From: Candidatus Magasanikbacteria bacterium GW2011_GWC2_37_14
GTDB taxonomy: Bacteria; Patescibacteriota; Patescibacteriia; Magasanikbacterales; UBA922
NCBI GenBank assembly: GCA_000990355.1
Contig: LBSX01000003.1
Span: 21,489-85,488, forward strand
Reading direction: 5' to 3'
DNA length: 64,000 bases
The notes beneath the pieces were generated by a model. The model was not told the origin of the DNA, did no database searches, and saw nothing but the letters and a program-made list of their open reading frames with translations. Every line of letters begins with the position of its first letter. Position 1 is the stretch's first letter. Shown here piece by piece: positions 7,210-56,246 of this stretch. A program made the position numbers and the translations under genes.

Positions 7210-7229
7210 TTAAATAATGATTTTAAATT

Positions 7230-10394: not shown

Positions 10395-10400
10395 ATTGTT

Positions 10401-27386: not shown

Positions 27387-27387
27387 A

Positions 27388-27500: not shown

Positions 27501-27503
27501 ATT

Positions 27504-31151: not shown

Positions 31152-31260
31152 TTTTCAATAATCAATTTACAATTTACAACAAATTTTCATTTAGATAATT
31201 TTCAATGTCAATGATAATTGAAAATTGGTTATTGATTGAAAATTGTGAATTGTAAATTGA
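31151..31260. repeat. repeat family C copy
   Basis: taattttcaataatcaatttacaatttacaacaaatt ... aattgtgaattgtaaattga. Confidence 0.65.
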
Positions 31261-31277
31261 TAATTATTTATTATTTT

Positions 31278-32264
31278 ATGCGTCTTACTCCAACAAAATT
31301 AAAAGAGCTTTGTGAGCAATATGATCTTTCTCCAAGCAAAAAATATGGTCAAAATTTTTTGATTCAAGAACATCCAATTAAAAAAATGTTTGAAGCGGCA
31401 GAAATAAATAAAAACGACCTAGTAGTTGAAATTGGACCAGGTTTTGGAATATTAACTTTTGCTTTGGCAGAAAAAGCCAAAAAAGTAATTGCTTTTGAAA
31501 TTGAAAAAAAGATTGAAAATTATTGGCAAGAAAATAAACCAGAAAATGTGGAAATTATTTGGGGGAATGCGCTCATGTCATTGCGAGGAAGCCGATTCGC
31601 ATCGGCTGACGAAGCAATCCCAAGTTTAGTGAAGAGTGCAAAGGGATTGCCACACCTCGCTCGGGCGGGGTTCGCAATGACAGGTTACAAAGTAATCGCC
31701 AATGTACCGTATCAAATTACTTCGGATTTAATTAGAACTTTATTGGAATTAGAAAATAAGCCTGAGAGCATTACGATTATGGTGCAAAAAGAAGTTGCTG
31801 AGCGTATTTGTGCCCAAGCTGGAGAAATGAGTTTGTTGGCAATTTCAGTACAATATTATGGCGAAGTAAAAACTGTGGCAATTGTAACACGAGGAAATTT
31901 TTGGCCAGAACCAAAGGTGGATTCGGCAATATTGCACATTAAAGTGAGACAACAACCCCCTTGTTCCCCCTTTATTAAGGGGGAAACCAACAAACCCTGT
32001 TTAATTCCCCCCTTGGTAAAGGGGGGTAGGGGGGATATTGACCAAGAACAATTTTTTAAGATTGTTAAAACTGGTTTTTCACAAAAGCGTAAACAATTGT
32101 GGAGCAATCTAAGCAAAGGTCTTAAAATAGAGGGTGAAATGGTAAAAAAAGTGCTTTTGGAAGTGGTTGGCAATGATAAAGTAAGAGCAGAGGAATTGGG
32201 AGTAGAGGAGTGGAAAGAAATTACCACGCGGTTATCCACAACGTCAAAAGAAAAATTGCTGTAA
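31278..32264 (+). CDS. rsmA: 16S rRNA (adenine1518/1519-N6)-dimethyltransferase RsmA/KsgA with two in-frame GC-rich insertions
   Basis: YGQNFL, VVEIGPGFGILT, ANVPYQITS, PKVDSAIL, FSQKRKQL. Confidence 0.8.
   Translation: MRLTPTKLKELCEQYDLSPSKKYGQNFLIQEHPIKKMFEAAEINKNDLVVEIGPGFGILTFALAEKAKKVIAFEIEKKIENYWQENKPENVEIIWGNALMSLRGSRFASADEAIPSLVKSAKGLPHLARAGFAMTGYKVIANVPYQITSDLIRTLLELENKPESITIMVQKEVAERICAQAGEMSLLAISVQYYGEVKTVAIVTRGNFWPEPKVDSAILHIKVRQQPPCSPFIKGETNKPCLIPPLVKGGRGDIDQEQFFKIVKTGFSQKRKQLWSNLSKGLKIEGEMVKKVLLEVVGNDKVRAEELGVEEWKEITTRLSTTSKEKLL
31577..31681. repeat. in-frame 105-bp GC-rich palindromic element (gtcattgcgaggaagccgattcgc ... ggttcgcaatgac) inside rsmA
   Basis: Terminal inverted repeats gtcattgcg / cgcaatgac; the length is exactly 35 codons; inserted between the GNAL and ANVPY segments, where homologues have about 15-20 aa. 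Confidence 0.7.
31955..32036. repeat. second in-frame GC-rich insertion in rsmA containing hairpins ccccc-tttatta-aggggg and cccccc-ttggtaaa-gggggg
   Basis: Encodes PPCSPFIKGETNKPCLIPPLVKGGRG; the hairpin motif resembles those flanking the DUF559 gene. Confidence 0.5.
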
Positions 32265-33017: not shown

Positions 33018-36000
33018 ATGTTTATTTTACACAAAACAAAAAAGTCCCTGTTAGTTATCTTAATAAGTATTTTTATTTGTGTACAACTGTTTGGAGTTTT
33101 GGCTTTTGCCAAACCGGCCAATGCCCAAATGGATTCGGCCATTACTGCAGCTTTTAGTGGCAAATGGACTTGGGAACAAGTTGGTAATTCTTTGTTGGCA
33201 GCTTCATTAGGTGCTTTGGTAAATGGCATGTCTTATTTTATGCGTAAAATGGCTTATGATACTGCCATGTATGTGTCTTCTGGTGGTAAAGGAAAAGGGG
33301 CTTTGGCTTTTAAACAAGGTCCAGCAAAATATTTTGAAAATGTAGCCAAAGATGCTGCAGCTAGTGCCATTGAAGTTTTTGGTGAACCATTTGGTTTAAA
33401 TTTATGTCAAACTCCAGATTTAAGAGTACAAGTTTATTTGCAAGTAGGTTTGCGTAACATGTATGGAGATGGTGGTGGTGGCCAAACCGGCCCACAACCA
33501 AGATGCGATTGGAATAAATTAAGCAATTCTTGGTCTGGTGAAGCTTTTGAAAGTAAATATGGCCCAGGTGGCAGAAAGTTTTTGGCCGAAACTTTTTCTA
33601 ATTCCTTAAGAGTAGAAGACACTGATTTTGGTATAGCTCTTGGAGCTATGGGTAAAATAGACAGAATTAAAGCCAATGCCGAAGCTGGAGCTGCTACTGA
33701 AAGAATTGAAGGTCAGGGCTACAAAGCTTTAACTGGTTTAATTACTGGTAATGTTAAGACTCCAGCTCAAATAATTAAAACTGAAACCGAGGCAATTACT
33801 GCCAAAAATCAAACAGATTTAAGTGCCAAACAAATTGCTGGCATCTATGGTTCTGGAGCTTTACAAATAATTCCCATGGGTGCTTCGGTTTTTATCAACA
33901 CCCTAACTGGTCAACTTTTAAATAAATTAATGAGTGCGGCACAAGGTTTGTTTAGTGACGACAGTGGAGAAGAAAGTACCGACGGTGGCACAACTAATTT
34001 TTTTGCTCAATATGTGCAAGATACTCGTAAAGCCGCAGCCCAAGCTTTTAATTTTTTGTATACAGCAGTACCGCAAAAACAATTAAATACTTACGATATT
34101 ATTTCAGAATTTGCGGCTTGCCCAGATAGTCCCTCTCTAAATAATTGTGTAATTGACACCCAATTACAACAAGCCATTGAGCGCGCCAAAAGCAACAAAC
34201 CTCTAACAATCAAAGAAGCCATGAGTGATACAGAAAAGTTATTAAATAAAAAAGGGTTTTTAATTTCTCCTCGTCGCGAAGTAGATAATACTAATTTTAA
34301 TTGTTATAAAAAAGGCTATTGTTATTCCAATTTACAAAAATTAAGAAAAGCCAGAATTTTGCCAATTGGTTTTGAGTTGGCCGCTTTAAAATCCGATCCC
34401 GATAATCCTTGGACTTTGGAACAAGTGGTAAATGGTTTTGAAGATTGCAAACGAGATGAAAATGGAGAGGCTATACCAGACGTAGGACATCCTTTTTGTC
34501 ATTTAATAGATCCTAATTGGATTATTCGTTCTCCAGAGGCTCATTGCGAGGCCAAAGTAAATGGCCCAATACTCGAAAGTCCAGATACTGCTCGCAGGCA
34601 AACAGAATGTGTAGATATTTCTACTTGTTTGGCAGAAAATGAAAATGGTACTTGTGCTTCACCGTTTAGTTATTGTTTGCGAGAAAAAAATATTTGGCAG
34701 ATTGGCGGGCAATCTTGTAATGATTATTATAGTACTTGTGACACTTATTTCGATAGTACAGGCAAAGCCGTGTCTTATCTTTCTCGTACTTTAGACTTTG
34801 GTGAGTGTAATTTGGATGCTGTTGGTTGTCGGGCTTACAGTTTGGAGCAAGGCGCTGGTGGTGTTTGGCAAAATAGTGAACAAATTATTTTTAATAATAA
34901 ATATTTAAGTCGTCCTCAAACCATATTCTTTAATAAAAATATTGATAATTATAGATGTGCCAATGCCAATGATGAAGGCTGTAGTGCTTTTAATGCCGTG
35001 GGTGCAGATAATTCTCGCGGTAGTTTAACTTATCTTAAAAAAGCTCCAGATTATTTAGGTTGTTACGATATAAATACTTCTACTGGTTCCGCAGTAATTA
35101 ATTGGCCAAAAACCAAAGTAGAATTAAGTTATTTAAATGATCGCTCCGAAAGTTGTAAAAATTTTGCCGGAGTTTGTTTGCCAGACGAATTAGGTTGTGA
35201 AAGTTATACTTCGGGCGATGGCGGGGTAGCTATACCAGGCATAATTGGCTCCAATTATTGTCGTCCTGAATGTGTAGGTTATGACACATACAAACAAGAA
35301 GCAACCAATTTTTCTTCCTCAACTTTTCCATTACATTTTATTCCTGGCAAGGGCACCAAATGTTTGCCACAAGAAGCTGGTTGTGAAGAATTTACCAATA
35401 TAGATACAGTAACCAAGGGTGGTGAAGGTTTGGAATATTATACAGATTTGCGTTATTGCGAAAGACCCGCGGCCAACAATCAAGAAACTTATTATTCTTG
35501 GCAAGGTTCGGCTACCGAGGGTTATGTTTTACGTACTCACAAACTTTTGCCAATAGACCCAGTAGAAGCTGGAATAATTAGCGGGTTGTCTGGTTTTGTG
35601 AGTTCTACTGTTGGTGCCAATGTTAAAAGCACTTTTGTCTCGAGTTCTCCAGCTTATGTAGATGATAGTGTAGAAGCATTAGAAAAAAATTATAATTTAT
35701 GCAATGCCACAAGTTACAATGTTTTAATTAATAATCCTTATAGTAAAGAAGCCAAGAGTGCCGACTGTCGAGCTTTGTACAATAAAAAAGGGGATGTTTA
35801 TTATCGTTTATTAGCCGAAACCGTTACTATTTCCGAAGCTTGCCATCCTTTGCGCAAGACCGAAAGTGAATTATATGTAGACCAAAATATTAGTGTTGCT
35901 AATTGTACTGCCAAAGGTGGCAAGGTAGAGAATAGCCAATGTTTGCGCTGTTATCGTGGTGGAAAACTAGATAGTACTGGTAATGCTTGTATTTATTGGA

Positions 36001-39000
36001 CAATTTCTAAGTCTGGTGAATCTGTTTCTTGTACACCAACAGCCAAAAGTTGTCGGGCCTATACTGGTAATACGGGCAATAATATAAAAGAAATATTATT
36101 TAATGGCGAAGATATTGTTACTTTTGAACCCACGAGTACCGACCCTGGAGCTTTGACTGCGGCAGCCGCTGGTTGGCTTGGTACCAAACAAGTGCGACCA
36201 GAATCAATTCAAGTTGGTCAATATTCTTTGGGTGTACAAGGAGAAATAAAATATGAATTTGCAAGTAACGTAATAGAAAGTAATTCTTGGTATGAATTAA
36301 GTTTTTGGGCCAAAGGTAATACCCAAAATTTAAATATTAGATTTTATGGCAAAAATGCCACTGGTGGTTTTGAAGAGAAGGGTGAATTTACTTATAACCC
36401 CTACGTCCAAGTAAGTGTACCGGCAACTGTGGGTGCTGAATGGCAAGAATATAGTTTGGGCCCAATTTTGTTTAAGGGGAATGGTGAAAAGGAAGTACGT
36501 TTGTCTTTTTCTAGCAATGTTACCAACAAAGAATATTATTTAGACAATATTCGTCTAACCAAAATACAAGATCATACCTATTTAATAAAAAATTCCTGGA
36601 AAACTGTAGAAGGTTACGATGTACCGTTAACCTGTGACAATGAACCTGCCGATGGTTTGCCGGGCGTGGCTTTGGGTTGTAAGGCTTATCGCGATTCACA
36701 GGGTACACCAATTAGCGCCACTGGTTTTGAAAAATTATGTCGCCCCGAAGCTGTAGGGTGTCAAGAATTTTATGATACCTTCAACACTCCCAATGAAATT
36801 ACCACTAGTAGTTATAATGTGTGGTGTAATGGAAATGTCCAAGGTGTGTGTAAATTAACTTCTAGTACTGTTGAACTTGGCAAATGTGAAGTGCCAGTAG
36901 GGCAAACAGGTTGTTTGGTAGACAAAATTGTGGTGCCCGAGGGTGTGGCTTTTCCTAGTGGTATTACCAATGCTTCGGTAGTTACTTCTACTATTATTAT
37001 TCCTGCCGATACTCCTATTGGCCAACAGATTTATTTAACCAACCGCAGGTCTTTTAAATGTTCGGAAAGCGCTCTTGGTTGTACCAAAGTAGCTTTGGAA
37101 TCTCGTACAGTATTGGGCTTAAATAATTCACCTTCACTCTATGATTTTTCCGAAACTTACCTAAAAAATAATCCTGCGAATTATAGTGAAACTCTTTGTG
37201 CTGATTCTTTGGTAGGTTGTCAAGAATTTAAATCAGGAAGTGATATTACTTATTTTAAAAATCCCGAAATTTTGGGCAGTGTGCAGTGTAATTATAAAAC
37301 TTTGGTAGACATTGCTGGTACCAAATATTCTGGCTGGTTTAGAGATGGTGTGGGCACTTGTATCAATAATGCCGATAAATTTTGTCGGGCAGATAAAGAT
37401 TGTGGCACAGGCACCGAAGCCAAATGTAATACCAAAGATCCAGTACCTTGCTATGAAAATTATGTACAAGCTGGCTCAAATTATGGTGTTTGGTCCAATA
37501 GTTCAGACAATTACAAAGGATTGGTGGGTATGTGCCCGGCCGCACAAAATGGTTGTACCGAATTAATTGATCCAGCCGATACTTCACAAAACAATCCCGA
37601 AGGCAAACCTTATTATATTATTTTTAATCGTGACGTAGAAAAGCGCACTGGTGAGTGCGAAGGTAAGGTAAGCTTAAAAGATGGCTGTGTGTTGTTTGAT
37701 CGTACCGATCTCCCCAACAAAATTTATAATGTTGCTGAAACATATAAAAATAGTGAAAATTTAACAGATAATAAATATGGTTCGGTAACTCCTTCGACTA
37801 CAGTGTCGGCTTTGGAACCAAAATTAAAAGCCAATTTAATTTTAAAAGTAGAACGTGACCGTCAATGCAGTGAATGGCTACAGTGTAAGAGTTATGCTGT
37901 AAATTATAACGAAAAAGGCCAACCAACCAATTTGTGTGAAGAATTCAAAAGATGTACACAGTTAAATGATCGTGGTGAATGTATTTCTTGGGTACCAGAA
38001 AATGATGAGTTATATTCTCAAACACTTACCGAAGATTTTTATGTGGGTCGTTCTACAAATTGGTATGCTGAAGATTTTTCGGGGTATAGTTTGCTCAACA
38101 AATATCAAATTGGCAGTTATGTATATTTAAAAATGGGTTTGCCAAATGAACCAACATTTTTGGCACACACGGTTGATGATCGAACAAGACCAGAAGGTGC
38201 TGCTGGTTGTACTGTAGCCTTGGGGGCACAGCCCGACAGCAAAGATGGAGATATTTGTGGTTTGGCCAATGGTGGGCGTTGTTGGCAAGGAAATTGTGTT
38301 TATCCACTTGAGGGATCTTTTACAGAAGAAGCAGTTAAAGCAACTTTTGCTAGTTATTTAGAACAAGGTTCTTGTAAAGCTTATCCCGAAAAAGAAAGTC
38401 CTTTTGAAGTTTATCAAGCTACAGAAGATTTTGGTGATACAGGTGCACCAAAACAATTATTTGGTGTAACAAGTACTATTAGTGGATCTAAGTTTAGATG
38501 GAATTACCCTGGTAGAAAAGATAGTTTTGGTAAAGTTAATATTTGTCAGGATTATAAAGATACAGATGGTAATAATTATAAGTGTTCTTGTGGTTATGTT
38601 AAAGTAACTTATAAAAATAATGTAACTGATTACTGGCCAGCAACCAACAAAATAGAAAGTATTTTACCAAAGGGTGTCTGTAGTGGTGGGTCTTTGGATG
38701 GCATTCCTTGTGATCCAGATTATGGTGACAAAAATCAATGTGGTGATGTTCTAGAAAATCCGGGTCAATGTAGTCGGATTACCGAAAGAACCCAAAGAAA
38801 TGGGCAAACTGGTTTTTGTTTGGAATATGATTTAAGTAGACCACTAGGCAAAGCAAACACAGATTTTAAAAAACAAACCTATGCTTGTCTCACTTGGTTG
38901 CCAGTAGAAGTTTCGGCTTCGGGAATAGACACTTACAATTATTATGAAAAAGCTGGTTATCACCCCGGCATAGACGCCAACGCTTCTCTTGGACAAGTTT

Positions 39001-41765
39001 TTTGTACCGAGTCTACTGCCAATGGCCAGTTTACTTATGACACAACACAATATCAGAATTTGGGTGGAATTGTAGAGTCTAAATGCAGTTATTTATTTAA
39101 TGAATTTGGACAAAGTAGAATAAATACTTCTGACCTTACTGGTGCCTGCGGTCCTAGTGGCGCTGTAACATCAAATTATAGCGGTGATCAATTTGGATTA
39201 AATATGTATACAACACTGTCAAAATTATTAATATATTTTGATACGGGTCTTGAAAATTTTCAAACTAGTTTTGCCTGGCTAGGTGATAAAAATAACTATG
39301 ATAGTGGTTATGTAACCAACAAAAATGTTTATACTTTTATGCAGCTTTTTGGCTGGCATGGAGTGGATAAATTTTTAACTCAAAAAGATGTAATGTCTAC
39401 TAATGGCGCAATATCTGCGCCAGACGTGGTAGTTTGGTATATAAAAGATCCAACTTGGTGGGTAGACACTTTGTTAAGATTGTCTAATACGGGTTGGGAT
39501 TTATCAAGTGATTATTTTACTACAAGAATTCCACATAGTTATAGCTATGATATAAATAAAACAATTTATTTAAATGAAGTACGAAGAATTTATTTGCCAT
39601 CTTTTGCTTTTATTGTGGACGATGGTACTCTGCATGGAGATGCTGGTGATGATATGGTTTTTACCGATGATATTTATATAGATTTTGAAAGATTAAGAAC
39701 CAATGGTTCTCTTTATGATAGATTTCAGAACCCTTGTGTTAAAGGAGGGTCATTAACCTGTATATCGGTAGATGGCCCACGAAATGCTGCTTATAGTAGA
39801 AAAGAAGTTTATGAACCTGGTGCAAGCCATTTTGTAGGCTATGAAGACGATGAAACATTTCCTTATTATACTTTTTATGGTGTAAGGGATGATGGTACAG
39901 AAGTGTATGGTATTTATTTGTTAACTCAAGAATTTTTGGATAAATATCCTGGTGCAACTAATATTTATAAAGCCATGGTCTGGAATATAGATAGAAATAA
40001 TAACGGAGATATTTGGCCAAATCAGCTGGCTGGACGTTATATTCTTACTTGGGAAAATAAAAATGGTGTTTTAACTAAGCCAGGTGAAGGTTATCCCAGT
40101 GTTGAAACCAGTCTAGCAGCAGGCAACGCTTTGTGTGAAAAGATAGTTAATGGTGTTCCAAAATGTGAAATAAACAAAGTTAGTTATCTAGGGGCTTTAA
40201 TAGAATTTATGCCTCGTTGTACAACTTTTAATTTGGTACATAAAAATCAATCTAATGATGATTATGACACCAAGAACAAAGCTTGGACCAATAGAGTTTG
40301 GATCAATGGTGCAGAAAAATATACATTTGACCGAGCAGGGAATGAATATTTTAAACGTGATGGTGCTGGGACTTCGGCTCCTTATGGCGCTACGGCTTTG
40401 TCTGAAACAGACTTTACTGATAAAACGGTTTTAAGAAAATATTGGTATCAAAATTTAGTTTTTGCTGGAGGCTTTCCTTTTGCTTGTTATGACAAGATTT
40501 TTTCTGGTGCTAATTTTGATGTTGTGCCTGTAATCGGTTTATATTTTAGTGGTAATTGGGGAGAAAAAGCGTATTGCAGTGGTTTGCTCGGGCATATTTC
40601 AGAATTAAGAACTTTTAAGCCAATTATAGAAAAGTTTTCTAGCCAAGTAAATATAAATAGTAGTCCATGGGAAAAAGGCTTTGATGGAGAAGATGCTTTG
40701 GCACGTCTTTTTGCGAAAAGTTTTGAAATAAAATTTCGTAGTCCAACTAGTACAGATGAAACAAATTTTGTTAGAGTTGTTGATGGTACTGACAATGCCG
40801 GTGATTTAGGTATTGCTAATAAATATTATAGCGATACCGAATCAGAAGTAACTCTCTTTCCACCACGCATATATTCCTTAAACCCCAACACTTGTAAAAC
40901 TGGTTTATCTAGTGTGCCGTGTACTTATGGCGAAGAAAACAATGTAACTGTGGGCAATAAAAATGGCACCAAAACAGATTATAACAAAGACGGTTCTATT
41001 GATGAAGATTTAACTGGCGACCAAATACCAGAATATAATTATGGGTTAACTAGCTTTTTGGCTTCGGTAAAGTTTTATGCTTTGGCCGACGAAAATCGCA
41101 TGCCAATCAAACGGGTGTTGGTAGAATGGGGAGACGGAAGTATAAAAGATGAGAGAGTTGGCATGTATAGAAATCATTTACCATTTTGTTCGGATGATGC
41201 CGAAACCGCTAATCGCAATTTCTGTTTTGCCAATGGTGTAAACACTCAATTAACTTGTACTACTCCCGAGGATTGCCCTGTTGAGCCTGGCACTGATTAT
41301 TATTGTCACGCTAGTGTTCCAGCAGAACCTCACTTTGGCGTAGCCAAACGCGCTTGTGAAACAAATATTTTTGAACGTGTTCATAATTATACTTGTACAG
41401 ATTTGGATGCTGGTGAAGTTTGGACTTCTACAACAGAACAACTTTCTTCAGATATTAAACAAAAATTACAGCGAATGGGTGTGGCAAATGTTCCTTTTGT
41501 TTGTATTTTTCAGCCCAAAGTTCAAGTTTTGGATAACTGGGGTTGGTGTAATGGAACATGTGGAGATTTAACTGATTATGGTGGAAATAATAATGGAATA
41601 ATAGATGGTAGTGAGTTTGAAGGTTGTTATAATAATACTGACCCAGCTTCTGGCTCTTTAGATTGCGATCCGGGAGTTTCACCTGTCACTAATGAAAAAC
41701 ATTGGACACAATATCAGGGACAAATTATTGTAGTGCCAACTAGTACTGCATCGGGGGGATATTAA
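33018..41765 (+). CDS. giant (2915 aa) Cys-rich secreted protein
   Basis: Signal peptide ending AFAKPANAQ; more than 150 Cys residues in recurring C-x-C / CxxC contexts; no cytoplasmic enzyme motifs. Confidence 0.65.
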   Translation: MFILHKTKKSLLVILISIFICVQLFGVLAFAKPANAQMDSAITAAFSGKWTWEQVGNSLLAASLGALVNGMSYFMRKMAYDTAMYVSSGGKGKGALAFKQGPAKYFENVAKDAAASAIEVFGEPFGLNLCQTPDLRVQVYLQVGLRNMYGDGGGGQTGPQPRCDWNKLSNSWSGEAFESKYGPGGRKFLAETFSNSLRVEDTDFGIALGAMGKIDRIKANAEAGAATERIEGQGYKALTGLITGNVKTPAQIIKTETEAITAKNQTDLSAKQIAGIYGSGALQIIPMGASVFINTLTGQLLNKLMSAAQGLFSDDSGEESTDGGTTNFFAQYVQDTRKAAAQAFNFLYTAVPQKQLNTYDIISEFAACPDSPSLNNCVIDTQLQQAIERAKSNKPLTIKEAMSDTEKLLNKKGFLISPRREVDNTNFNCYKKGYCYSNLQKLRKARILPIGFELAALKSDPDNPWTLEQVVNGFEDCKRDENGEAIPDVGHPFCHLIDPNWIIRSPEAHCEAKVNGPILESPDTARRQTECVDISTCLAENENGTCASPFSYCLREKNIWQIGGQSCNDYYSTCDTYFDSTGKAVSYLSRTLDFGECNLDAVGCRAYSLEQGAGGVWQNSEQIIFNNKYLSRPQTIFFNKNIDNYRCANANDEGCSAFNAVGADNSRGSLTYLKKAPDYLGCYDINTSTGSAVINWPKTKVELSYLNDRSESCKNFAGVCLPDELGCESYTSGDGGVAIPGIIGSNYCRPECVGYDTYKQEATNFSSSTFPLHFIPGKGTKCLPQEAGCEEFTNIDTVTKGGEGLEYYTDLRYCERPAANNQETYYSWQGSATEGYVLRTHKLLPIDPVEAGIISGLSGFVSSTVGANVKSTFVSSSPAYVDDSVEALEKNYNLCNATSYNVLINNPYSKEAKSADCRALYNKKGDVYYRLLAETVTISEACHPLRKTESELYVDQNISVANCTAKGGKVENSQCLRCYRGGKLDSTGNACIYWTISKSGESVSCTPTAKSCRAYTGNTGNNIKEILFNGEDIVTFEPTSTDPGALTAAAAGWLGTKQVRPESIQVGQYSLGVQGEIKYEFASNVIESNSWYELSFWAKGNTQNLNIRFYGKNATGGFEEKGEFTYNPYVQVSVPATVGAEWQEYSLGPILFKGNGEKEVRLSFSSNVTNKEYYLDNIRLTKIQDHTYLIKNSWKTVEGYDVPLTCDNEPADGLPGVALGCKAYRDSQGTPISATGFEKLCRPEAVGCQEFYDTFNTPNEITTSSYNVWCNGNVQGVCKLTSSTVELGKCEVPVGQTGCLVDKIVVPEGVAFPSGITNASVVTSTIIIPADTPIGQQIYLTNRRSFKCSESALGCTKVALESRTVLGLNNSPSLYDFSETYLKNNPANYSETLCADSLVGCQEFKSGSDITYFKNPEILGSVQCNYKTLVDIAGTKYSGWFRDGVGTCINNADKFCRADKDCGTGTEAKCNTKDPVPCYENYVQAGSNYGVWSNSSDNYKGLVGMCPAAQNGCTELIDPADTSQNNPEGKPYYIIFNRDVEKRTGECEGKVSLKDGCVLFDRTDLPNKIYNVAETYKNSENLTDNKYGSVTPSTTVSALEPKLKANLILKVERDRQCSEWLQCKSYAVNYNEKGQPTNLCEEFKRCTQLNDRGECISWVPENDELYSQTLTEDFYVGRSTNWYAEDFSGYSLLNKYQIGSYVYLKMGLPNEPTFLAHTVDDRTRPEGAAGCTVALGAQPDSKDGDICGLANGGRCWQGNCVYPLEGSFTEEAVKATFASYLEQGSCKAYPEKESPFEVYQATEDFGDTGAPKQLFGVTSTISGSKFRWNYPGRKDSFGKVNICQDYKDTDGNNYKCSCGYVKVTYKNNVTDYWPATNKIESILPKGVCSGGSLDGIPCDPDYGDKNQCGDVLENPGQCSRITERTQRNGQTGFCLEYDLSRPLGKANTDFKKQTYACLTWLPVEVSASGIDTYNYYEKAGYHPGIDANASLGQVFCTESTANGQFTYDTTQYQNLGGIVESKCSYLFNEFGQSRINTSDLTGACGPSGAVTSNYSGDQFGLNMYTTLSKLLIYFDTGLENFQTSFAWLGDKNNYDSGYVTNKNVYTFMQLFGWHGVDKFLTQKDVMSTNGAISAPDVVVWYIKDPTWWVDTLLRLSNTGWDLSSDYFTTRIPHSYSYDINKTIYLNEVRRIYLPSFAFIVDDGTLHGDAGDDMVFTDDIYIDFERLRTNGSLYDRFQNPCVKGGSLTCISVDGPRNAAYSRKEVYEPGASHFVGYEDDETFPYYTFYGVRDDGTEVYGIYLLTQEFLDKYPGATNIYKAMVWNIDRNNNGDIWPNQLAGRYILTWENKNGVLTKPGEGYPSVETSLAAGNALCEKIVNGVPKCEINKVSYLGALIEFMPRCTTFNLVHKNQSNDDYDTKNKAWTNRVWINGAEKYTFDRAGNEYFKRDGAGTSAPYGATALSETDFTDKTVLRKYWYQNLVFAGGFPFACYDKIFSGANFDVVPVIGLYFSGNWGEKAYCSGLLGHISELRTFKPIIEKFSSQVNINSSPWEKGFDGEDALARLFAKSFEIKFRSPTSTDETNFVRVVDGTDNAGDLGIANKYYSDTESEVTLFPPRIYSLNPNTCKTGLSSVPCTYGEENNVTVGNKNGTKTDYNKDGSIDEDLTGDQIPEYNYGLTSFLASVKFYALADENRMPIKRVLVEWGDGSIKDERVGMYRNHLPFCSDDAETANRNFCFANGVNTQLTCTTPEDCPVEPGTDYYCHASVPAEPHFGVAKRACETNIFERVHNYTCTDLDAGEVWTSTTEQLSSDIKQKLQRMGVANVPFVCIFQPKVQVLDNWGWCNGTCGDLTDYGGNNNGIIDGSEFEGCYNNTDPASGSLDCDPGVSPVTNEKHWTQYQGQIIVVPTSTASGGY

Positions 41766-43149: not shown

Positions 43150-43227
43150 TGTCATGCTGAACTCGTTTCAGCATCCCTTACTTATTTAATATTGCCAGGG
43201 GATCCTGAAATAAATTCAGGATGACAG
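43150..43227. repeat. repeat family A copy
   Basis: tgtcatgctgaactcgtttcagcat ... gatcctgaaataaattcaggatgaca. Confidence 0.7.
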
Positions 43228-43311
43228 ACAATGTGGATATCTATATTTTTTCTTTAAACAAACAAAAAAATGTGTTATAATGTTTGTAGTTTAGCATGTA
43301 GTGTAAATCAA

Positions 43312-43406
43312 CTGTCATGCTGAATGTAATTGTCATGCTGAACTTGTTTCAGCATCCCGTGAGATCCTGAAATAAATTCAGGATGACAGCCAAGTTCAGG
43401 ATGACA
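43312..43406. repeat. repeat family A copy with extra half-sites (ctgtcatgctgaa; ttcaggatgaca x2)
   Basis: Immediately upstream of ORF 43420, whose ATG lies in a degenerate half-site (gtcATGctcaaattc). Confidence 0.7.
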
Positions 43407-43419
43407 TTTAAAAAAAGTC

Positions 43420-47301: not shown

Positions 47302-48648
47302 ATGTTGGATAAAAATAATTTAAAAGTAAAAAATTGGTTGCAAAATAAAGAAGCTTTAAAAGAAACTGTTGATTTGGCCAATGTTTTTTTTGTTGGCAAA
47401 TGGCAAGAAGAAAGTGTTTTGGACTGGCTTAATAAATTAAATCAGCATTTAGAAGATTATAATCCCCTAAAAATTGCTAGTGATCTGGATACGGCTTTTG
47501 TAAATACAGTTTTAAATCTTTTAGATTATAATTTACTCAGCGAAATTAAAGATGTCTTAACAAAATTAATTGCCAACAAAACCGAGGCTGAGGCGCAAAA
47601 ATTAGATGAGTTAATTAAACAATTTGAACCAGATTTTTCCAATATTGCCGCTGTTTTACTTTGTTCCTTGCCAACCGATACTAGCGTGGCTTTAGAAGAA
47701 ATAGACTCAAAAGATCTCACCCCTGGTTTTTATCGGTTTTTGGGTCAATCAGTATTGGGCCACGAACATCAAGTAAGTTTTGAAGCTTTTAAAATTTTGG
47801 AAAGTAGTGTTTTTAACAATCAAAAAAACACTACCAAAGACAAATTGATTTTTATTGCAGTGATATTTTTGGCATATAACCAATTTAAAAGTTTAAGTTA
47901 TACCCAACAAATAGAATTATTACTCAGTTATTTTTGGTCAGCAATTGAGGTTGGTGTGCCTGTTGCCGAAATTTTTGCAGAGCAACTGCTTACTGAAAAT
48001 TCTTTGGTTGAATATATTAATACGAGTATTTTGTGGGGCAAGACAATTTTGGAAAGTAAAGAAGTAATTTTTATAGATAAAAATAAGCAAAACTTTTTAG
48101 TGGGGGATCTGGTGATTAAATATCTAATAATGGCGGGCAATGACATTTTGCTTGAAGATAAACAAAATAGTTATTTAGAAAAAATTATTAAAGAAAATAA
48201 TTTAAATAGTGATAAAAAAGAAAAATTAATTAGTTTACTTTCTTTTTATTTGCGTTTAAGCACCTGTAGTTTAGTAGACTATAATGGTTTGTTGCACGAG
48301 CAAGGCCTGGTAAAAACACCTTTTGATTGGCAAGAATTAATTAATAATGGTATCTCTGATTTACAAGCAGAAGAAATAAAAAAATACTTTTCACAGTTAC
48401 ACCAATCTTTGAGCATTAAAATTGAAATAGTTAATTCTTTACAAACCATGTCAAACTGGCGCGAGGAGCCTTATTTTGAAAGAATGCTTGCCCTTAGCCA
48501 ATCATATGAAGATGTTTGCGGGTTGTATTTTGGTCCTTTGGTTTATTTTGATGGCGAAAAAGATAAATGGGATTTTTATGTAGAATTACCCAATGGTTTA
48601 AAAGAAAAGTTTGAAGAATCATTTAAAAAATATGGAATTAAAGAATAA
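47302..48648 (+). CDS. hypothetical protein, paralogous to the next ORF
   Basis: Shared segment LLSYFWSAIEVGVPVAEIFAEQLL vs LLKNYFYTAIVAGVPVKIILDRFL. Confidence 0.5.
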   Translation: MLDKNNLKVKNWLQNKEALKETVDLANVFFVGKWQEESVLDWLNKLNQHLEDYNPLKIASDLDTAFVNTVLNLLDYNLLSEIKDVLTKLIANKTEAEAQKLDELIKQFEPDFSNIAAVLLCSLPTDTSVALEEIDSKDLTPGFYRFLGQSVLGHEHQVSFEAFKILESSVFNNQKNTTKDKLIFIAVIFLAYNQFKSLSYTQQIELLLSYFWSAIEVGVPVAEIFAEQLLTENSLVEYINTSILWGKTILESKEVIFIDKNKQNFLVGDLVIKYLIMAGNDILLEDKQNSYLEKIIKENNLNSDKKEKLISLLSFYLRLSTCSLVDYNGLLHEQGLVKTPFDWQELINNGISDLQAEEIKKYFSQLHQSLSIKIEIVNSLQTMSNWREEPYFERMLALSQSYEDVCGLYFGPLVYFDGEKDKWDFYVELPNGLKEKFEESFKKYGIKE

Positions 48649-49585
48649 TTTTTGGTTTAATTATCAGTTACAAAATTACCACGAAGTTGTTGATTCTTTT
48701 GGTTTGTTAGAAAACAAACGTTTGGAAATTATTTCAAAAATTGGCAAGTTGGGTGAAAGGATTTTTTTATATGTTGATTTTATTTCTAAAAAAATATTAC
48801 AACACCAAATTAAACCCGAAGTAAGTTTTGAAACCAATCTTATTAAATATTTGGATTTAGGATTATTAAATAATTTTATTAACGATCCTTTAAACAAAGA
48901 AAATCGCGATTTGTTTTCCGAACAGCTTTTGCTGGTTTATTCGGCTTTGGGCGGGGCTTTGCCTATAAATGCTTATTCGGTAGAAGAAATGTTACAAATC
49001 AAATCAGCCGAATATTTATATTATGATGATAATATTTTTGTGGGTACTTTACGTTATATTTTTAGTGATTTGGATGTATTTTATAAATATTTACCAAGTA
49101 TTAGCGACTATTTGTTTAGAGATGGCCAAAATTCTATTAAACAAAACTTTGATTGGCACACAGCTTTTATTTATTCGGCTTTAATTAATTTTTGCTGGTC
49201 AAGTTTTTGGTTTTTAAAAAGTGAAGAACAAGAAAATTTGCTTAAAAATTATTTTTATACGGCCATTGTTGCCGGAGTGCCGGTAAAAATTATTTTAGAT
49301 CGTTTTTTGGCTGTGGGCACTGCAGAAGAAAAAGTACGTTGTCAACAATTGTTTGCCAATGGTCTTGAAAATAATTTAGAAGAAGTTCCTTTGAATGGAG
49401 ATTTTACCGAGTGGAAAAAATTATTAGCTATTATCCGTGGTTTTTCGGTGCGAATTAAGGGTTCAAATTCTGGTTTTGAACAAGAAGAATTTTTAAAGGA
49501 ATTTTATCAAAATCAACCAGGGAGAGACGTTTATCGCGGTTGGCTACGAGAAGTTTTGAATATAGTGTTTAGTTTGGAAAAGTAG
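48611..49585 (+). CDS. hypothetical protein, paralogue of 47302..48648
   Basis: See previous entry; overlaps it by 38 nt (the start may be the ATG at 48632). Confidence 0.5.
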   Translation: MKNHLKNMELKNNFWFNYQLQNYHEVVDSFGLLENKRLEIISKIGKLGERIFLYVDFISKKILQHQIKPEVSFETNLIKYLDLGLLNNFINDPLNKENRDLFSEQLLLVYSALGGALPINAYSVEEMLQIKSAEYLYYDDNIFVGTLRYIFSDLDVFYKYLPSISDYLFRDGQNSIKQNFDWHTAFIYSALINFCWSSFWFLKSEEQENLLKNYFYTAIVAGVPVKIILDRFLAVGTAEEKVRCQQLFANGLENNLEEVPLNGDFTEWKKLLAIIRGFSVRIKGSNSGFEQEEFLKEFYQNQPGRDVYRGWLREVLNIVFSLEK

Positions 49586-49589
49586 TACA

Positions 49590-50062
49590 ATTATCAGTTT
49601 TCAATTTACAATTTACAATAAATTTTCAATTAAATAATTTTCAATGAATAAAAGTTCTAACAACTATGATTTGGAAGAACGTACAGCAGTATTTAGTGGA
49701 GAGATAATTAAATTTTGTAGAAGTCTAAAAGAAGATAATGTTACTAGACCGTTGATAAATCAGTTAGTGCGTTCTGGAACTAGTATCGGGGCAAATTATT
49801 GTGAAGCTAATAACGCGAGTTCAAAAAAGGATTTTCAAAATAAAATATTTATTTGTAAAAAAGAGGCACAAGAGACCAAATATTGGTTAAGGACACTTTC
49901 TACCTGTTGTCCAGAAGAAGTAGAAAATTTAAGGAAACTTTGGAAGGAAACACAAGAATTATTGATGATATTTCAAAAAATTGTGAATACTTTAAGAAGT
50001 AAATGATAATTGATAAATTGAAAATTTATTGTAAATTGTAAAATGGTTATTGTAAATTAAAC
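49590..50062. repeat. family C palindromic element split by a four-helix-bundle gene (left arm 49590-49646, right arm 50005-50062)
   Basis: The arms match the empty copies C1, C2 and C4; the 4HB ATG sits in the conserved centre aattttcaATG. Confidence 0.6.
49644..50006 (+). CDS. four-helix-bundle protein (23S rRNA-IVS protein family)
   Basis: LVRSGTSIGANYCEANNASSKKDFQNKIFICKKEAQETKYWLRTL. Confidence 0.7.
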   Translation: MNKSSNNYDLEERTAVFSGEIIKFCRSLKEDNVTRPLINQLVRSGTSIGANYCEANNASSKKDFQNKIFICKKEAQETKYWLRTLSTCCPEEVENLRKLWKETQELLMIFQKIVNTLRSK

Positions 50063-50066
50063 AATT

Positions 50067-51281
50067 ATGAGTAATTCTCCCACAATTCTAGTAAAGAAAG
50101 CTGACGGCACCCAGGTTCGCATGACCATGGAGGAGTTTAAGGTATACAAAAGTGGCGTTAATTCAGATAACAAAAAGCAAATAGCCTTCGTCCCGAGCTC
50201 AGGCCGAGGGGCAGATAGCATAAAAAAAATTGAGACAGCGGTTAAGACAGAAATAAAACATGAAGAGAAATTAGAAAATTTAGAAACTGAGAAATTAGTT
50301 GTTAACGACTTGCCAATGGTGTTGAATACCGAAGCTTTAACAACTACTGCACCAGTAAAAGAGGTGTTTGTAAATGAAGCGGAATATAAATCATTAAACC
50401 ATGAAAACATTAAAGCTTTAAAACAAGTTGAGCCTGTAAAAATAAAACAGCCAGTAATAAAGCCAGAAATAGTAAAAATAAAAAATTGGAAAGAGGATGA
50501 TTATAAATCTTTGCTGGATAGCCCAGAAACAGAAAAAGTGGCTCCAGTTGCTAGTGCGCCAGTAAACAAAAATGAACAATTAGCAGAAAAGATTATTTCG
50601 GCTCTGCCTTTTAAAGTTAATAATGACATTTTAGGTCGTTTGCGTTCTTTGGTACTGTCTCGAGTAAAAGAAATTCGTGATGATGACCAAGTAGTAAGTT
50701 ATGCCACTCGTGCCAAAGAAAATGGGGGACTGGGTTTGGCCGAATTAGCTGCTAGTGATTTGGTTGCTTTAATTAATAAATATTTACCAAGCAAATCAAA
50801 ATTAACCAAGACTGTTTTAGACGACGAAGAATCAGAAGCACCGCAAACTGCTACCAAAATGGCACCCGCCAAAGTCTATTTTCCCCAAACAGAAACCAAA
50901 AAGCCAGAAGTTGTGGGCAAACCAATAATGCAAGATGTAACGCCTCCACCGCCGGTAGAAAAGAGAAGTATGGGCCCTGTAGAAGAGTTTAAATTTATCA
51001 CTGTGGTAGATTTTCGTCGTTTGGCTACTAAACCAGAAGAGTGTACCAGAATTTTAAATGAAAAATTAATTGCTTTAAAAGCAGAATCATATTTAATTTA
51101 TAGCCAAGCAGTGGCTGGCTGGTTTGCTAGTCCATTGTATAGTAAATATTGCGAAGTTTTTAAAAGAAGTTTAAACGAAAAACAAAAAATAAGTGATTTA
51201 TTGTTAATTAAAAATAAAGAAGAATTAACTTTGGAAGAATTTAAAGCCCTATTGGAATTTAGTAGGGGGTTGAATGGTTAG
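50067..51281 (+). CDS. Lys-rich hypothetical protein
   Basis: ORF only; contains the 20-mer cccgagctcaggccgagggg (50192-50211), the reverse complement of a motif in prfB. Confidence 0.45.
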   Translation: MSNSPTILVKKADGTQVRMTMEEFKVYKSGVNSDNKKQIAFVPSSGRGADSIKKIETAVKTEIKHEEKLENLETEKLVVNDLPMVLNTEALTTTAPVKEVFVNEAEYKSLNHENIKALKQVEPVKIKQPVIKPEIVKIKNWKEDDYKSLLDSPETEKVAPVASAPVNKNEQLAEKIISALPFKVNNDILGRLRSLVLSRVKEIRDDDQVVSYATRAKENGGLGLAELAASDLVALINKYLPSKSKLTKTVLDDEESEAPQTATKMAPAKVYFPQTETKKPEVVGKPIMQDVTPPPPVEKRSMGPVEEFKFITVVDFRRLATKPEECTRILNEKLIALKAESYLIYSQAVAGWFASPLYSKYCEVFKRSLNEKQKISDLLLIKNKEELTLEEFKALLEFSRGLNG

Positions 51282-51285: not shown

Positions 51286-51342
51286 TGTCATGCTGAACTA
51301 GTTTCAGCATCCCAGGAGATCCTGAAATAAATTCAGGATGAC
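51286..51342. repeat. repeat family A copy
   Basis: ctgtcatgctgaactagtttcagcatcccaggagatcctgaaataaattcaggatgaca. Confidence 0.65.
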
Positions 51343-51350
51343 AAAACAAT

Positions 51351-51782
51351 ATGCAACAATTTGTAGTACCACAATTTATTGATGTTGAAGATAAAATTTT
51401 TGGGCCGATTACTACCCGTCAATTTTTAATTTTGTTGGCAGCAGGCTTGCTGATTTTTGTATTCTATAAATTAACAGATTTTGCTTTGTTTGTAACTCTT
51501 ACGGCAGTGTTGGGCGGGTTGGCACTGGTATTTGCTTTTGTAAAAATAAATGGCCAGCCTTTTCATTATTTTTTGTTAAATTTATTACAAACTTTGCGCA
51601 AACCCTCTTTAAGGGTCTGGAAGAAAAATTTGTCTGATGAAGAATTAAATTTTTTACGTAAATTAAATACCGAGAAAGCACCTGAAAAAATTGCTAGAAA
51701 AGAAGTAAAATCTGGGCATATCCATGATTTAGCATTACTCGTTAATACTGGTGGTTTTTATAAACCAGAGGATGAATTGTAA
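51351..51782 (+). CDS. PrgI/VirB3-like small membrane protein of type IV secretion systems
   Basis: MQQFVVPQFIDVEDKIFGPITTRQFLILL followed by 2 TM segments; directly upstream of VirB4. Confidence 0.5.
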   Translation: MQQFVVPQFIDVEDKIFGPITTRQFLILLAAGLLIFVFYKLTDFALFVTLTAVLGGLALVFAFVKINGQPFHYFLLNLLQTLRKPSLRVWKKNLSDEELNFLRKLNTEKAPEKIARKEVKSGHIHDLALLVNTGGFYKPEDEL

Positions 51783-51787
51783 TTATC

Positions 51788-51925
51788 TGTCATCCTGAAT
51801 TTATTTCAGGATCTCCTGTTAGCATTAAAAGTGTTGGGGATGCTGAAATGGTACTTGTCCTGAATTTATTTCAGGATTCAGCATGACAATTGCATTCAGG
51901 ATGACAACCAAGTTCAGCATGACAA
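51788..51925. repeat. array of family A half-sites (tgtcatcctgaa-tttat-ttcaggat; atgctgaa; gtcctgaatttatttcaggat; ttcagcatgaca x2; ttcaggatgaca)
   Basis: Six or more copies of the 12-nt half-site TGTCATSCTGAA or its reverse complement within 140 bp, upstream of the VirB4 genes. Confidence 0.65.
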
Positions 51926-51959
51926 ATAGAACGTTTTGTGTTAAAATGACAAGTGTAAT

Positions 51960-54525: not shown

Positions 54526-54618
54526 GTCATCCTGACCGAGTGTAGCAACGAGTGGAGGGATCTCTTAAACAATGTACAAGAGATTCCTCGACTTCGCTTC
54601 GCTACGCTCGGAATGACA
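54526..54618. repeat. inverted pair of family B repeats (gtcatcctgaccgag ... ggagggatctc and gagattcctcgacttcgcttcgctacgctcggaatgaca)
   Basis: The two copies face each other across a 15-nt spacer. Confidence 0.6.
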
Positions 54619-54623
54619 AATTT

Positions 54624-55199
54624 ATGTATATGCTTACACTACGTCAAAGAATTTTTGCTTACATTGGTATTTTTGTTGGTTTGGTGGTGGTTTTTTTGTT
54701 GGCTTATTTATTTATCAACAATAGTGGCGGGGTACGTGATTATGTAACAGAAAAAGGCACAAAAATTTTAAATATTAAACCCACAGGAGAGCAAACACCG
54801 GTGGCTACTACTACTCCAAACGTGGTAAAAGCCGACCCGCTTACTCCCGAGATTTATACCAAACAATTGTCACGAATTTTTGTCGAGCGTTTTAGTAGTT
54901 ATTCCAACCAAAATGATAATCTTCATATTAGCGAAGTAATTCCACTTTGTACCGAAACAATGGTTGCTTGGCTAAAGACACAAAATTTAACTAGTAGTTT
55001 GGATTATGCGGGGGTAACTACCAGAGTAATTGCCAGTAATGTTAGTAAAATTACTGCTACCTCGGCTACCGTGGAAATTCAAGTACAACAAGAAATAGAA
55101 AATAAAGCGGGAAAACAAGTGGTACAAAAAGATGGGCGTGTGGAACTTTTAAAAGTAGGCAATGATTGGAAAATAGATGGGTTGTATTGGCAAAAATAG
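54624..55199 (+). CDS. membrane-anchored hypothetical protein (start chosen downstream of the repeat)
   Basis: N-terminal TM IFAYIGIFVGLVVVFLLAYLFI; last gene of the T4SS-like cluster. Confidence 0.45.
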   Translation: MYMLTLRQRIFAYIGIFVGLVVVFLLAYLFINNSGGVRDYVTEKGTKILNIKPTGEQTPVATTTPNVVKADPLTPEIYTKQLSRIFVERFSSYSNQNDNLHISEVIPLCTETMVAWLKTQNLTSSLDYAGVTTRVIASNVSKITATSATVEIQVQQEIENKAGKQVVQKDGRVELLKVGNDWKIDGLYWQK

Positions 55200-55200
55200 T

Positions 55201-55312
55201 TTAATTTTCAGTAATCAATTTTCAATTTACAAAAAATTTTCAATTAAATAATTTTCAATGTTATTGATAATTGAACATTGTAAATTTATTGAAAATTGTG
55301 AATTGTAAATTG
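55201..55312. repeat. repeat family C copy
   Basis: tttaattttcagtaatcaattttcaatttacaaaaaatt ... aattgtgaattgtaaattgg. Confidence 0.65.
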
Positions 55313-55319
55313 GCAATTT

Positions 55320-55967
55320 ATGCTACATGGATTAATTAGTTTAATTAAAGATTATATTTTTCCCGTATATTGTCTAGGTTGCCAAACAGAAGGTGAGTGG
55401 GTTTGTAAAAATTGTTATAACAACATAAACGCGCAGAGCGTTTTTTGTTTTACAAATTTAGAGGATAATTTTGTTAATTTATTAATTTCGCCTTATCTTT
55501 ATCAAGAAAATGAACTGATCGGCAAAATTATTCAATATTTTAAATATCATTATGCAGAAGAATTAGAGCAGGTAATCTTTAATTTAATAAATAAATTTTT
55601 ATTAGAAAATAAAAATTTATTTGCAGAGATTGATTGTGTTATACCTGTGCCATTACATGCTCGGCGTTTGGCAGAGCGGGGATTTAACCAAGCCGAAGTT
55701 ATTGCTAAAATTTTAGGTGCTATTTTGAATAAGCCAGTTTTAAATAATTTGGGGCGTGTTCGATATACCAAGCAACAAGCCAAACTAAACAAATTGGCTA
55801 GGCAAGAAAATGTGGCTAGTGCTTTTGTGGTTAATGGTAAAATAAGCAATAATATTTTAATTGTTGATGATGTGTTTACTACAGGTGCGACTACAAAAGA
55901 ATGTGCCAAAGTGCTAAAACAAGCCGGAGCTAAAAAAATTATTGCCTTTACTTTGGCACGAGGTTAA
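55320..55967 (+). CDS. comFC: ComFC-family phosphoribosyltransferase-domain protein
   Basis: N-terminal C-x2-C...C-x2-C zinc motif; PRTase motif ILIVDDVFTTGAT. Confidence 0.75.
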   Translation: MLHGLISLIKDYIFPVYCLGCQTEGEWVCKNCYNNINAQSVFCFTNLEDNFVNLLISPYLYQENELIGKIIQYFKYHYAEELEQVIFNLINKFLLENKNLFAEIDCVIPVPLHARRLAERGFNQAEVIAKILGAILNKPVLNNLGRVRYTKQQAKLNKLARQENVASAFVVNGKISNNILIVDDVFTTGATTKECAKVLKQAGAKKIIAFTLARG

Positions 55968-56018: not shown

Positions 56019-56105
56019 GGAGAGATGGCTGAGTGGTCGATAGCAGCAGTTTACTAAACTGCAGTCCCCGTAAGGGGACCTAGGGTTCGAATCCCTATCT
56101 CTCCG
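56019..56105 (+). tRNA. type-II tRNA, Ser-like (G73, long variable arm) with anticodon loop TTACTAA, i.e. anticodon ACU by canonical numbering; no encoded CCA
   Basis: Hand-folded: acceptor GGAGAGA / TCTCTCC, D-stem GCT / AGC with an 11-nt loop, anticodon stem GCAGT / ACTGC, 18-nt variable hairpin GTCCCCGTAAGGGGAC, T-arm TAGGG-TTCGAAT-CCCTA. Confidence 0.7.
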
Positions 56106-56158
56106 CCTTCGCGCGCCGAAGCGCGCTTCGGCGGACAAAGTCCGCTAAATTAGACTTT

Positions 56159-56246
56159 GGAGAGGTGTCAGAGCGGTCTATCGTCCAGCTTTGCTAAAGC
56201 TGCAGGGGGCAACCCCTCGCGGGTTCGAATCCCGCCCTCTCCGCCA
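56159..56246 (+). tRNA. tRNA-Ser (anticodon GCU), CCA encoded
   Basis: Acceptor GGAGAGG / CCTCTCC, anticodon stem CAGCT / AGCTG with loop TTGCTAA, variable hairpin GGGGGCAACCCC, T-loop GGTTCGAATCC, then G-CCA. Confidence 0.85.

Follow-up and report, generated by a model that had tools for sequence, protein, structure and literature searches.

A four-helix-bundle gene between inverted heptamer arrays in a Magasanikbacteria intergenic spacer: likeness to the ORF-bearing intervening sequences of 23S rRNA

Short, gene-less hairpins are found among the intervening sequences (IVSs) of 23S rRNA in Salmonella, Yersinia, and Campylobacter. Other IVSs, such as those of Coxiella burnetii, Leptospira, and Azospirillum, carry an open reading frame (ORF) for a four-helix-bundle (4HB) protein of family PF05635; they are bordered by stem-forming inverted repeats, have tandem heptamers at or over the start codon, and lie within a transcription unit and in its orientation. 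To our knowledge, no function has been assigned to this ORF from the early 1990s onwards. An element with the anatomy of such an ORF-bearing IVS exists in the stretch of DNA considered here, 64 kb of contig LBSX01000003.1 of Candidatus Magasanikbacteria bacterium GW2011_GWC2_37_14 (hereafter, the window), where it is placed between two protein-coding ORFs and not in a 23S rRNA helix. We consider it probable that this locus is an IVS-type cassette, that is, a 4HB gene between inverted heptamer arrays in the spacer of co-directional protein genes; three gene-less palindromes elsewhere in the window would be the gene-less form of this cassette.

In the IVS of Coxiella, three GACAGAT heptamers and one degenerate copy directly precede the ATG of the S23p gene, their number varying between strains; there is also a terminal stem of 28 bp, and RNase III cuts at the first repeat (PMC4990558). 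An excess of heptameric repeats is known from many bacterial genomes, and slippage is the cause proposed, in publications that do not connect these repeats to 4HB genes (PMC4692102, PMC4679880). The existence of IVSs with an ORF, a stem, and heptamers is already known, as is the abundance of stand-alone 4HB genes. In the open-access literature, no description was found of the IVS layout in the mRNA spacers of the candidate phyla radiation (CPR) or of a large family of gene-less palindromes; nor was one found there of a general link between PF05635 and clade-specific heptamer arrays across phyla. An earlier description of any of these elsewhere is possible.

The window, which has a G+C content of 37%, contains three gene-less, AT-rich palindromes of about 115 bp (A, B, and D) and one split copy (C), all of them located where an earlier note, made from the sequence alone, had placed them (27388, 31151, 55201, and the split copy). 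The same note described the split copy as two arms around a complete 4HB gene with its ATG at the central CAATG, and this is borne out by the sequence and by the matches to PF05635 and TIGR02436 (Table 1): the gene starts at the ATG within the CAATG that closes the left arm, and it stops at a TGA with which the right arm opens. Over 55 nt (49589-49643 and 50004-50058), the two arms show 80% complementarity. When the ORF is cut out of the split copy, the four copies can be aligned over about 120 columns with a mean column identity of 79%. The core 17-mer CAATTTACAATTTACAA, with up to three mismatches, has 17 matches in the window versus 1.7 expected; none of 100 shuffles reaches 17, and all of the matches are confined to the four palindrome sites. 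The RNA folds of the copies range from -23.6 to -36 kcal/mol (z -2.9 to -7.5), the split copy with a short artificial loop replacing its ORF giving -36 kcal/mol (z -7.5). At each of the four, the element completely occupies the spacer between a stop codon and an ATG. It is therefore true, as was noted earlier, that all copies lie directly upstream of genes, but it is equally true that they lie directly downstream of genes. The identical sequence is present in two independent assemblies, and the exact 4HB protein occurs in Candidatus Magasanikbacteria bacterium GW2011_GWC2 (US42_C0003) and in the groundwater contigs of PRJNA268031. An Rfam scan of the window revealed no rRNA and no family covering the palindromes.

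Table 1. The palindrome family of the window, with the genes on either side of each copy.
Feature	Position	Strand	Remarks
Gene-less palindrome A	27387-27505		RNA fold -30.1 kcal/mol, z -5.0
Neighbours of A: release-factor gene / tsaC	26235-27386 / 27510-28196		Palindrome A fills the spacer between them
Gene-less palindrome B	31149-31268		RNA fold -33.3 kcal/mol, z -5.6
Neighbours of B: DUF4015 gene / rsmA	29997-31151 / 31278-32264		Palindrome B lies in between
Upstream neighbour of C	48611-49585	+	Function not assigned; stop codon abuts the left arm
Left arm of split copy C	49586-49646	+	Tandem heptamers TTTTCAA/TTTACAA; ends in CAATG
4HB gene in copy C	49644-50006	+	120 aa; PF05635 / TIGR02436, "23S rRNA-intervening sequence protein" family
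Right arm of split copy C	50004-50066	+	Inverted heptamers TTGAAAA/TTGTAAA; ends 0-1 nt before the ATG of ORF 50067
Downstream neighbour of C	50067-51281	+	Function not assigned; same strand as the 4HB gene
Gene-less palindrome D	55200-55319		RNA fold -23.6 kcal/mol, z -2.9
Neighbours of D: ORF / comFC-like gene	54552-55199 / 55320-55967		ORF has no assigned function

The protein encoded in copy C scores 58.3 bits against PF05635, the sole Pfam family that it matches (cut-off 33.8), and 81.8 bits against TIGR02436 (cut-off 24); it also matches PDB entry 2RLD (E 3.5e-13). The AlphaFold model (pLDDT 92.6) has four helices (11-27, 34-56, 61-88, and 90-119) and yields TM scores of 0.80-0.88 to 2RLD, 0.77-0.82 to 2GSC, and 0.73-0.80 to phage Avd (4DWL), the fold also matching Avd in the ribonucleoprotein of a diversity-generating retroelement (DGR; 8UB7). 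Across the clade of this protein, the median pI is 9.2, so the protein is basic, and dN/dS is 0.14 with saturated synonymous sites (pS 0.83). Judged from these substitution rates, the protein is under purifying selection.

The association between gene and arms is found well beyond the window. The same arms enclose three homologues with 76-82% identity in other CPR genomes, where the neighbouring genes are unrelated; CAATG closes the left arm, and the right arm runs from the stop codon. The pairing of a 4HB gene with such arms, for which the earlier note had a single example, is thus shared by relatives elsewhere, and the test that the note had set for itself does not refute it. The check that it suggested on the other 4HB gene of the window (25838-26194) was negative, since no significant arms were found there (the flanking inverted repeats are at chance level, with a score of 11); this second gene is of the classical bAvd-like type and matches PF05635 at 114.9 bits. 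A metagenome scan then gave 79 loci with homologues at 58-83% identity, and, together with the earlier loci, 72 distinct elements had sufficient flank. Heptad arms are visible by eye in nearly all of these 72, which lie on distinct contigs, and 50 pass a strict inverted-repeat test (within 70 nt, above the 99th percentile of shuffles); most of the others have a second, nested palindrome or an interrupted arm. The consensus of the left arm, aAATTttcAATtt.cAaTTTtCAATTTtcAAtaAATTTtCAATG, is in fixed register with the ATG, and the right arm is usually fused to the stop codon as TAATTGAAAATT or TGAAAATT. The consensus N-terminus of the protein, MxQFSN, is encoded by the arm heptads themselves (ATGnnnCAATTTTCAAAC). 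The 4HB gene has the same orientation as its upstream neighbour in 53 cases versus 1 and as its downstream neighbour in 50 versus 5, while the distance from the upstream stop codon to its ATG has a median of about 48 nt, or about one arm length. In some genomes, several copies of the 4HB gene are present on one contig. The 4HB gene and its arms are therefore one conserved unit across the CPR.

In the window clade, the arms consist of tandem heptamers with the unit CAATTTW. The identity at lag 7 is 0.56 in the left arms and 0.55 in the right arms, whereas it is about 0.26 at other short lags nearby and falls to 0.20 within the ORF. Since the arms stay at their consensus while pS is 0.83, their conservation is not neutral, and purifying selection acts on the arms as well as on the protein.

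The repeat unit changes with the 4HB clade, and the inverted layout is kept in most clades. A more distant 4HB gene (L041) has GAAATTC/TTTCGAA arms of 34 nt that are 79% complementary, and a second 4HB gene on L070 has a unit of the TTCCAAA type (L070 is labelled Bdellovibrionales, and CPR-like genes are present on it). In a second large CPR clade, classical bAvd-like and with more than 4600 relatives, GAATTAN/NTAATTC arms were found in four of four independent members (in one of them as GAATCTG/CAGATTC), with heptads that cover the start codon and also the final codons of the ORF. These four are relatives of the type of 4HB encoded at 25838-26194 and were found with a clade 2 query from another contig. 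Among the cyanobacterial and Riemerella plasmids, the unit is CAGGAGT in those of Nostoc punctiforme and in Aulosira, GGGTGTA/TACACCC in Calothrix (inverted-repeat score 31, shuffle mean 9.4), GGGGAGT/ACTCCCT in Nostoc edaphicum (score 32, shuffle mean 9.9), AGGGAAA/TTTCCCT in Geminocystis, CTGCCYT in Stanieria and Nostoc PCC 7120, an octamer in Picosynechococcus, and AAGGTTY/RAACCTT in Riemerella (Bacteroidota). In every lineage sampled, genes of this 4HB family adjoin short-repeat arrays, mostly of 7 bases.

As a control, the first 50 kb of the plasmid pNPUN01 were searched for period-7 arrays. Only six were found, of which two flank the 4HB gene; a third, with the same unit as these two, lies about 600 nt upstream. 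Two more of the six make up a gene-less inverted pair, AGGCAGG.. / ..CCTGCCT, in an intergenic spacer (L221, 46630-46817); in Nostoc PCC 7120 and Stanieria, this unit is the one found on both sides of 4HB genes. In cyanobacteria, 4HB genes and their arrays are also present inside CRISPR-Cas operons, on plasmids of Pseudanabaena (L209) and Picosynechococcus (L217), the operon sites being between cas6 and cas4 and between cas10 and cmr3.

The link with the rRNA comes from Azospirillum lipoferum, in which a 4HB ORF of the plasmid AZO_p2 lies inside a 23S rRNA gene (Rfam LSU, 403 bits, model positions 963-1449). This ORF has inverted AGAGGAC/GTCCTCT heptamers on both sides, with its ATG within the array. 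Judged against the IVSs of Azospirillum and Coxiella, the window element has the anatomy of an ORF-bearing IVS outside rRNA, and the earlier pointer to rRNA intervening sequences was apt.

Gene-less copies are found in many other genomes. When a 27-nt arm pattern was run against a set with a single genome for each species, at least 115 stretches matched, and the matches listed come nearly all from Patescibacteria of many classes; among them, a 4HB gene adjoins only four. An inverted partner lies within 190 nt of 53 of the 111 testable arms listed, as against none of 53 shuffles, the other arms listed being solitary arrays. The pattern-bearing arm has no orientation bias with respect to the flanking genes (28 vs 26). 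Some 20 of 115 arms listed sit inside long ORFs; some single arms lie at one and the same position in homologous genes of three CPR genomes (L025, L087, and L107; also L012 and L054) and are read through in frame, for example as IFNFQFSIFNKFSN. The only cargo seen other than a 4HB gene is a 98-aa ORF of GIY-YIG type, which lies between a left and a right arm in L034 (1316-1811). For a few of the arm matches, the genome bears the label Ignavibacteria, Bacteroidetes, Bdellovibrionales, or Gammaproteobacteria, for which either transfer or binning error may be the cause. The viral contigs scanned with the arm pattern gave no match, and there is hence no evidence for phage-borne spread.

The relationship between the two forms is seen at an orthologous site between two FtsX-type permease genes, where a gene-bearing element is present in L198 and a gene-less palindrome in L024. 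Since the site is the same, gene-bearing and gene-less copies are alternative states of one resident element; together with the alignment of the four window copies, this upholds the view of the earlier note that empty and 4HB-bearing palindromes are one family. In several groups of loci, both flanking genes are common to all members (47-85% protein identity), and every member has the 4HB gene at the shared site; the gene-bearing copies are therefore vertically inherited over long times. The first six or so codons of the gene (MxQFSN) are present in empty copies too. It might be argued from these retained codons that the empty copies are deletion products; this argument was rejected because arm heptads encode the same codons in empty copies. 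A further genome of the Magasanikbacteria, L014, has an orthologue of ORF 50067 that begins 9 nt after the preceding gene with no element between them. Since ORF 48611 is also absent from this genome, neither a junction nor a target duplication can be read from the element-free site. No target-site duplication is visible at the four window copies, the ends of which are heptamer arrays of variable length.

How might such a cassette work? It would be co-transcribed with its neighbours, and its arms would pair in the transcript to give an AU-rich stem of about 50 bp with the ORF in the loop. A double-strand-specific RNase, by analogy with the rRNA IVSs RNase III, may cut this stem, which would separate the flanking messages and free the 4HB message. 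The basic 4HB protein might bind its own heptamer arrays, either as RNA or as DNA, which would explain the joint change of protein clade and repeat unit. Full and empty forms could interconvert by deletion or else by recombination or gene conversion through the arms. Because the repeats lie exactly between stop and start codons, they may affect the expression of operons.

A broader proposal can be advanced tentatively, and we rate it as less probable than the reading of the locus itself. PF05635 4HB proteins could be the partners of tandem heptamer arrays across bacteria, each clade having its own 7-nt unit; gene and inverted arrays together would be self-maintaining, and their gene-less descendants would include the short tandemly repeated heptamers (STRR) of cyanobacteria and the heptameric repeats of other bacteria as well as the short rRNA IVS hairpins. 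If this were true, it would explain at once what the IVS proteins do and why heptameric repeats are in excess in bacterial genomes.

Several observations weigh against the reading as an IVS-type cassette. In Pseudanabaena, AAAGCTA precedes the gene and AAAGCCA follows it, so that the two arrays are direct, not inverted, and in two related loci of the CPR set (L140 and L162) the left arm is missing. The complementarity of left arms to their own right arms is 23.4, compared with 23.0 to the right arms of other elements (shuffled, 11.3). Compensatory covariation for a hairpin within the clade was accordingly rejected, own-partner pairing being no better; the arms pair because left and right arms both match one consensus, and symmetry is retained only across clades. 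The sequence comparison therefore demonstrates conservation of the arm sequence and not selection for pairing as such. The start codon is within the predicted stem, and translation would be expected to be hindered. In Coxiella, S23p is probably not made in vivo, according to the conclusion of the study concerned (PMC4990558). Finally, where gene-less copies occupy orthologous sites, their conservation exceeds that of the proteins encoded on either side, and this agrees with a host function no less well than with a selfish element.

It is this last point, the better conservation of gene-less copies than of neighbouring genes, that makes a host regulatory role a serious rival, even if an unlikely one in our estimation. 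The copies would be cis-regulatory elements of the host, acting as intercistronic RNA or DNA signals (sites of processing or stability, spacers for translation coupling, or sites bound by a host regulator), and the 4HB protein would be a regulator that is autoregulated from within its own site. In L014, an orthologue of palindrome D occupies the corresponding site, between proteins only 41% and 50% identical to those of the window; the arm sequence is conserved beyond the saturation of synonymous sites; and the copies fill stop-to-start spacers exactly, all of which a regulatory element could explain, as it could the lack of orientation bias among gene-less copies and the basic character and purifying selection of the protein. 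It would explain less readily why the distribution is patchy and presence differs between related genomes, why single arms are in frame inside ORFs, and why some genomes have several 4HB copies per contig. Moreover, the presence of the cassette inside 23S rRNA and CRISPR-Cas operons of unrelated phyla looks like invasion and not like regulation.

The earlier note had proposed that the empty copies are MITEs, or miniature inverted-repeat transposable elements, derived from a tiny element with a 4HB gene as its cargo. The single family to which full and empty copies belong stands, whereas the MITE label is not supported, and empty copies may derive from full ones or the reverse. In a classical MITE scenario, which we regard as improbable, non-autonomous palindromes would be mobilised in trans by a transposase encoded elsewhere, and the 4HB gene would be the passenger of one copy. 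Such a scenario could draw on a family that is multi-copy, dispersed, and palindromic, with four copies in 64 kb and at least 115 arm matches in representative genomes, most of those listed without a gene, and on the element-free orthologous site in L014. Against it count the absence of any transposase between the arms in about 190 loci, where the cargo is 4HB plus one GIY-YIG gene, and the near-universal, clade-specific association with 4HB, which is not expected of passenger cargo. Instead of defined terminal repeats, there are arrays of heptamers that vary in length and have fuzzy ends, no target-site duplication is recognisable at the four window copies, and the viral contigs contain no match to the arm pattern. 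Full and empty copies also persist at one site although the flanking proteins are only 41-68% identical; since sites are kept between such genomes, this indicates long-term stability rather than frequent transposition.

A third explanation, that the arms contain a promoter from which the downstream gene is read or else a terminator that ends the upstream one, is very improbable. Sigma-70-like matches around copy C do exceed those in shuffles (10 vs 3.2), but most of them are antisense, and copy D has neither a forward match nor a terminator-like site. Since the two arms are inverted copies of one sequence, they do not form a directional pair of promoter and terminator. The 4HB gene almost always has the orientation of its neighbours, which is what a gene lacking its own promoter should show. 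Just as implausible is the idea that the 7-nt repeats arise spontaneously by replication slippage, with the palindromes as low-complexity AT-rich DNA and the adjacency to 4HB incidental: the heptamer excess for which slippage has been proposed (PMC4692102, PMC4679880) and the varying copy number of the units are consistent with it, but it explains neither why, in four phyla, genes of one family have inverted arrays of one unit to their left and right nor the fixed register with the ATG, and the arrays are rare elsewhere (6 in 50 kb of pNPUN01; 17 matches versus 1.7 expected in the window).

The window contains other repeats and features. Another small gene nested in a palindrome encodes a DUF559 (Vsr-like endonuclease) protein (28323-28688); its flanking inverted repeat is GC-rich, 40 nt long, and 75% complementary (28281-28320 / 28693-28732). 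A PrgI-like gene (51351-51782) has a perfect 31-nt inverted repeat on either side (51313-51343 / 51788-51818), which is a member of another hairpin family, TGTCATCCTGAA..TTCAGGATGACA, present several times in the window (51286-51931, 10324-10406, and 43150-43413). A GC-rich repeat of 50-52 nt, the copies of which are 98-100% identical, is in frame in three ORFs (12083-12134, 27803-27852, and 31574-31625). It reads MSLRGSRFASADEAIP in tsaC and rsmA and, in the opposite orientation, LLGIASSADANRLPRNDM in ORF 11376-12797, and recalls the palindromic elements found inside Rickettsia genes. This same ORF 11376-12797 contains the window's sole strict tandem array of period 7, with AGAGTTC/AAAGTTC units (11572-11605), which is unrelated in sequence to the arms of the palindrome family. 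There are two giant ORFs, of 3962 aa (13105-24993) and 2915 aa (33018-41765), the first with internal repeats of a period of about 1.4 kb (families D5 and D10-D12). Rfam gave a match to the Acido-Lenti-1 RNA barely over threshold at 7164-7210 (38.8 vs 37 bits), and two tRNA genes lie at 56019-56243.

Considered as an IVS-type cassette, the window element differs from the IVSs of 23S rRNA in lying between protein-coding genes and in having longer (about 55 nt), AT-rich arms with a sequence that is highly conserved across the whole radiation. The protein of its clade is clearly under purifying selection, unlike the decaying ORF of Coxiella. RNase III cleaves the Coxiella IVS, and excision by the same enzyme is predicted for the window element.

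Avd of the DGRs has the same fold and is part of a ribonucleoprotein; unlike it, the 4HB clade of the window gives a weak match, or none, to the Avd model. A profile search found no reverse transcriptase domain in the ORFs neighbouring the window elements, and no template/variable repeat pair was noted near the 4HB gene in a general repeat list, no search having been aimed at one. The Rickettsia palindromic elements are likewise dispersed palindromes that can be in frame in genes, which recalls the single arms in L025, L087, and L107, but they carry no gene, and the four window copies are all intergenic. The Correia elements of Neisseria and the ERIC/IRU elements of enterobacteria are, like the palindromes of the window, imperfect palindromes of about 100-150 bp in transcribed intergenic spacers. 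In the case of the Correia elements, RNase III cuts the hairpins. Defined terminal repeats and target duplications are features of both groups, neither of which has an associated protein gene in its loop, and this sets them apart from the window family.

There is a likeness in organisation to the REPIN-RAYT systems, where a low-copy gene lies between inverted copies of a repeat that is also dispersed in gene-less intergenic form, where the sequence of the repeat co-varies with the clade of the gene, and where inheritance is mostly vertical. The gene of the window encodes a helical bundle of 120 aa without the HUH/Y1 nuclease motifs, and not a tyrosine transposase like that of IS200/IS605; the repeats are heptamer arrays, unlike the GC-rich REP hairpins.

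Lastly, the STRR of cyanobacteria, the GGGAATC repeats of Xanthomonas, and the TAACTGA repeats of Beggiatoaceae are tandem 7-nt intergenic units, sometimes in inverted pairs, the function of which is not known. The arrays of the CPR differ from them in being AT-rich and in forming full palindromes, and constitute a very abundant repeat family, now identified, in streamlined genomes. Clade-specific arrays of short repeats, most of them heptamers and most of them inverted, surround thousands of 4HB genes in the CPR and are found with such genes in cyanobacteria, Bacteroidota, and Proteobacteria as well. In the cyanobacterial plasmids sampled, it is STRR-like arrays that flank the 4HB genes, and the locus described here, together with its relatives, ties the ORF of the IVSs to the over-represented and unexplained heptameric tandem repeats of bacteria.

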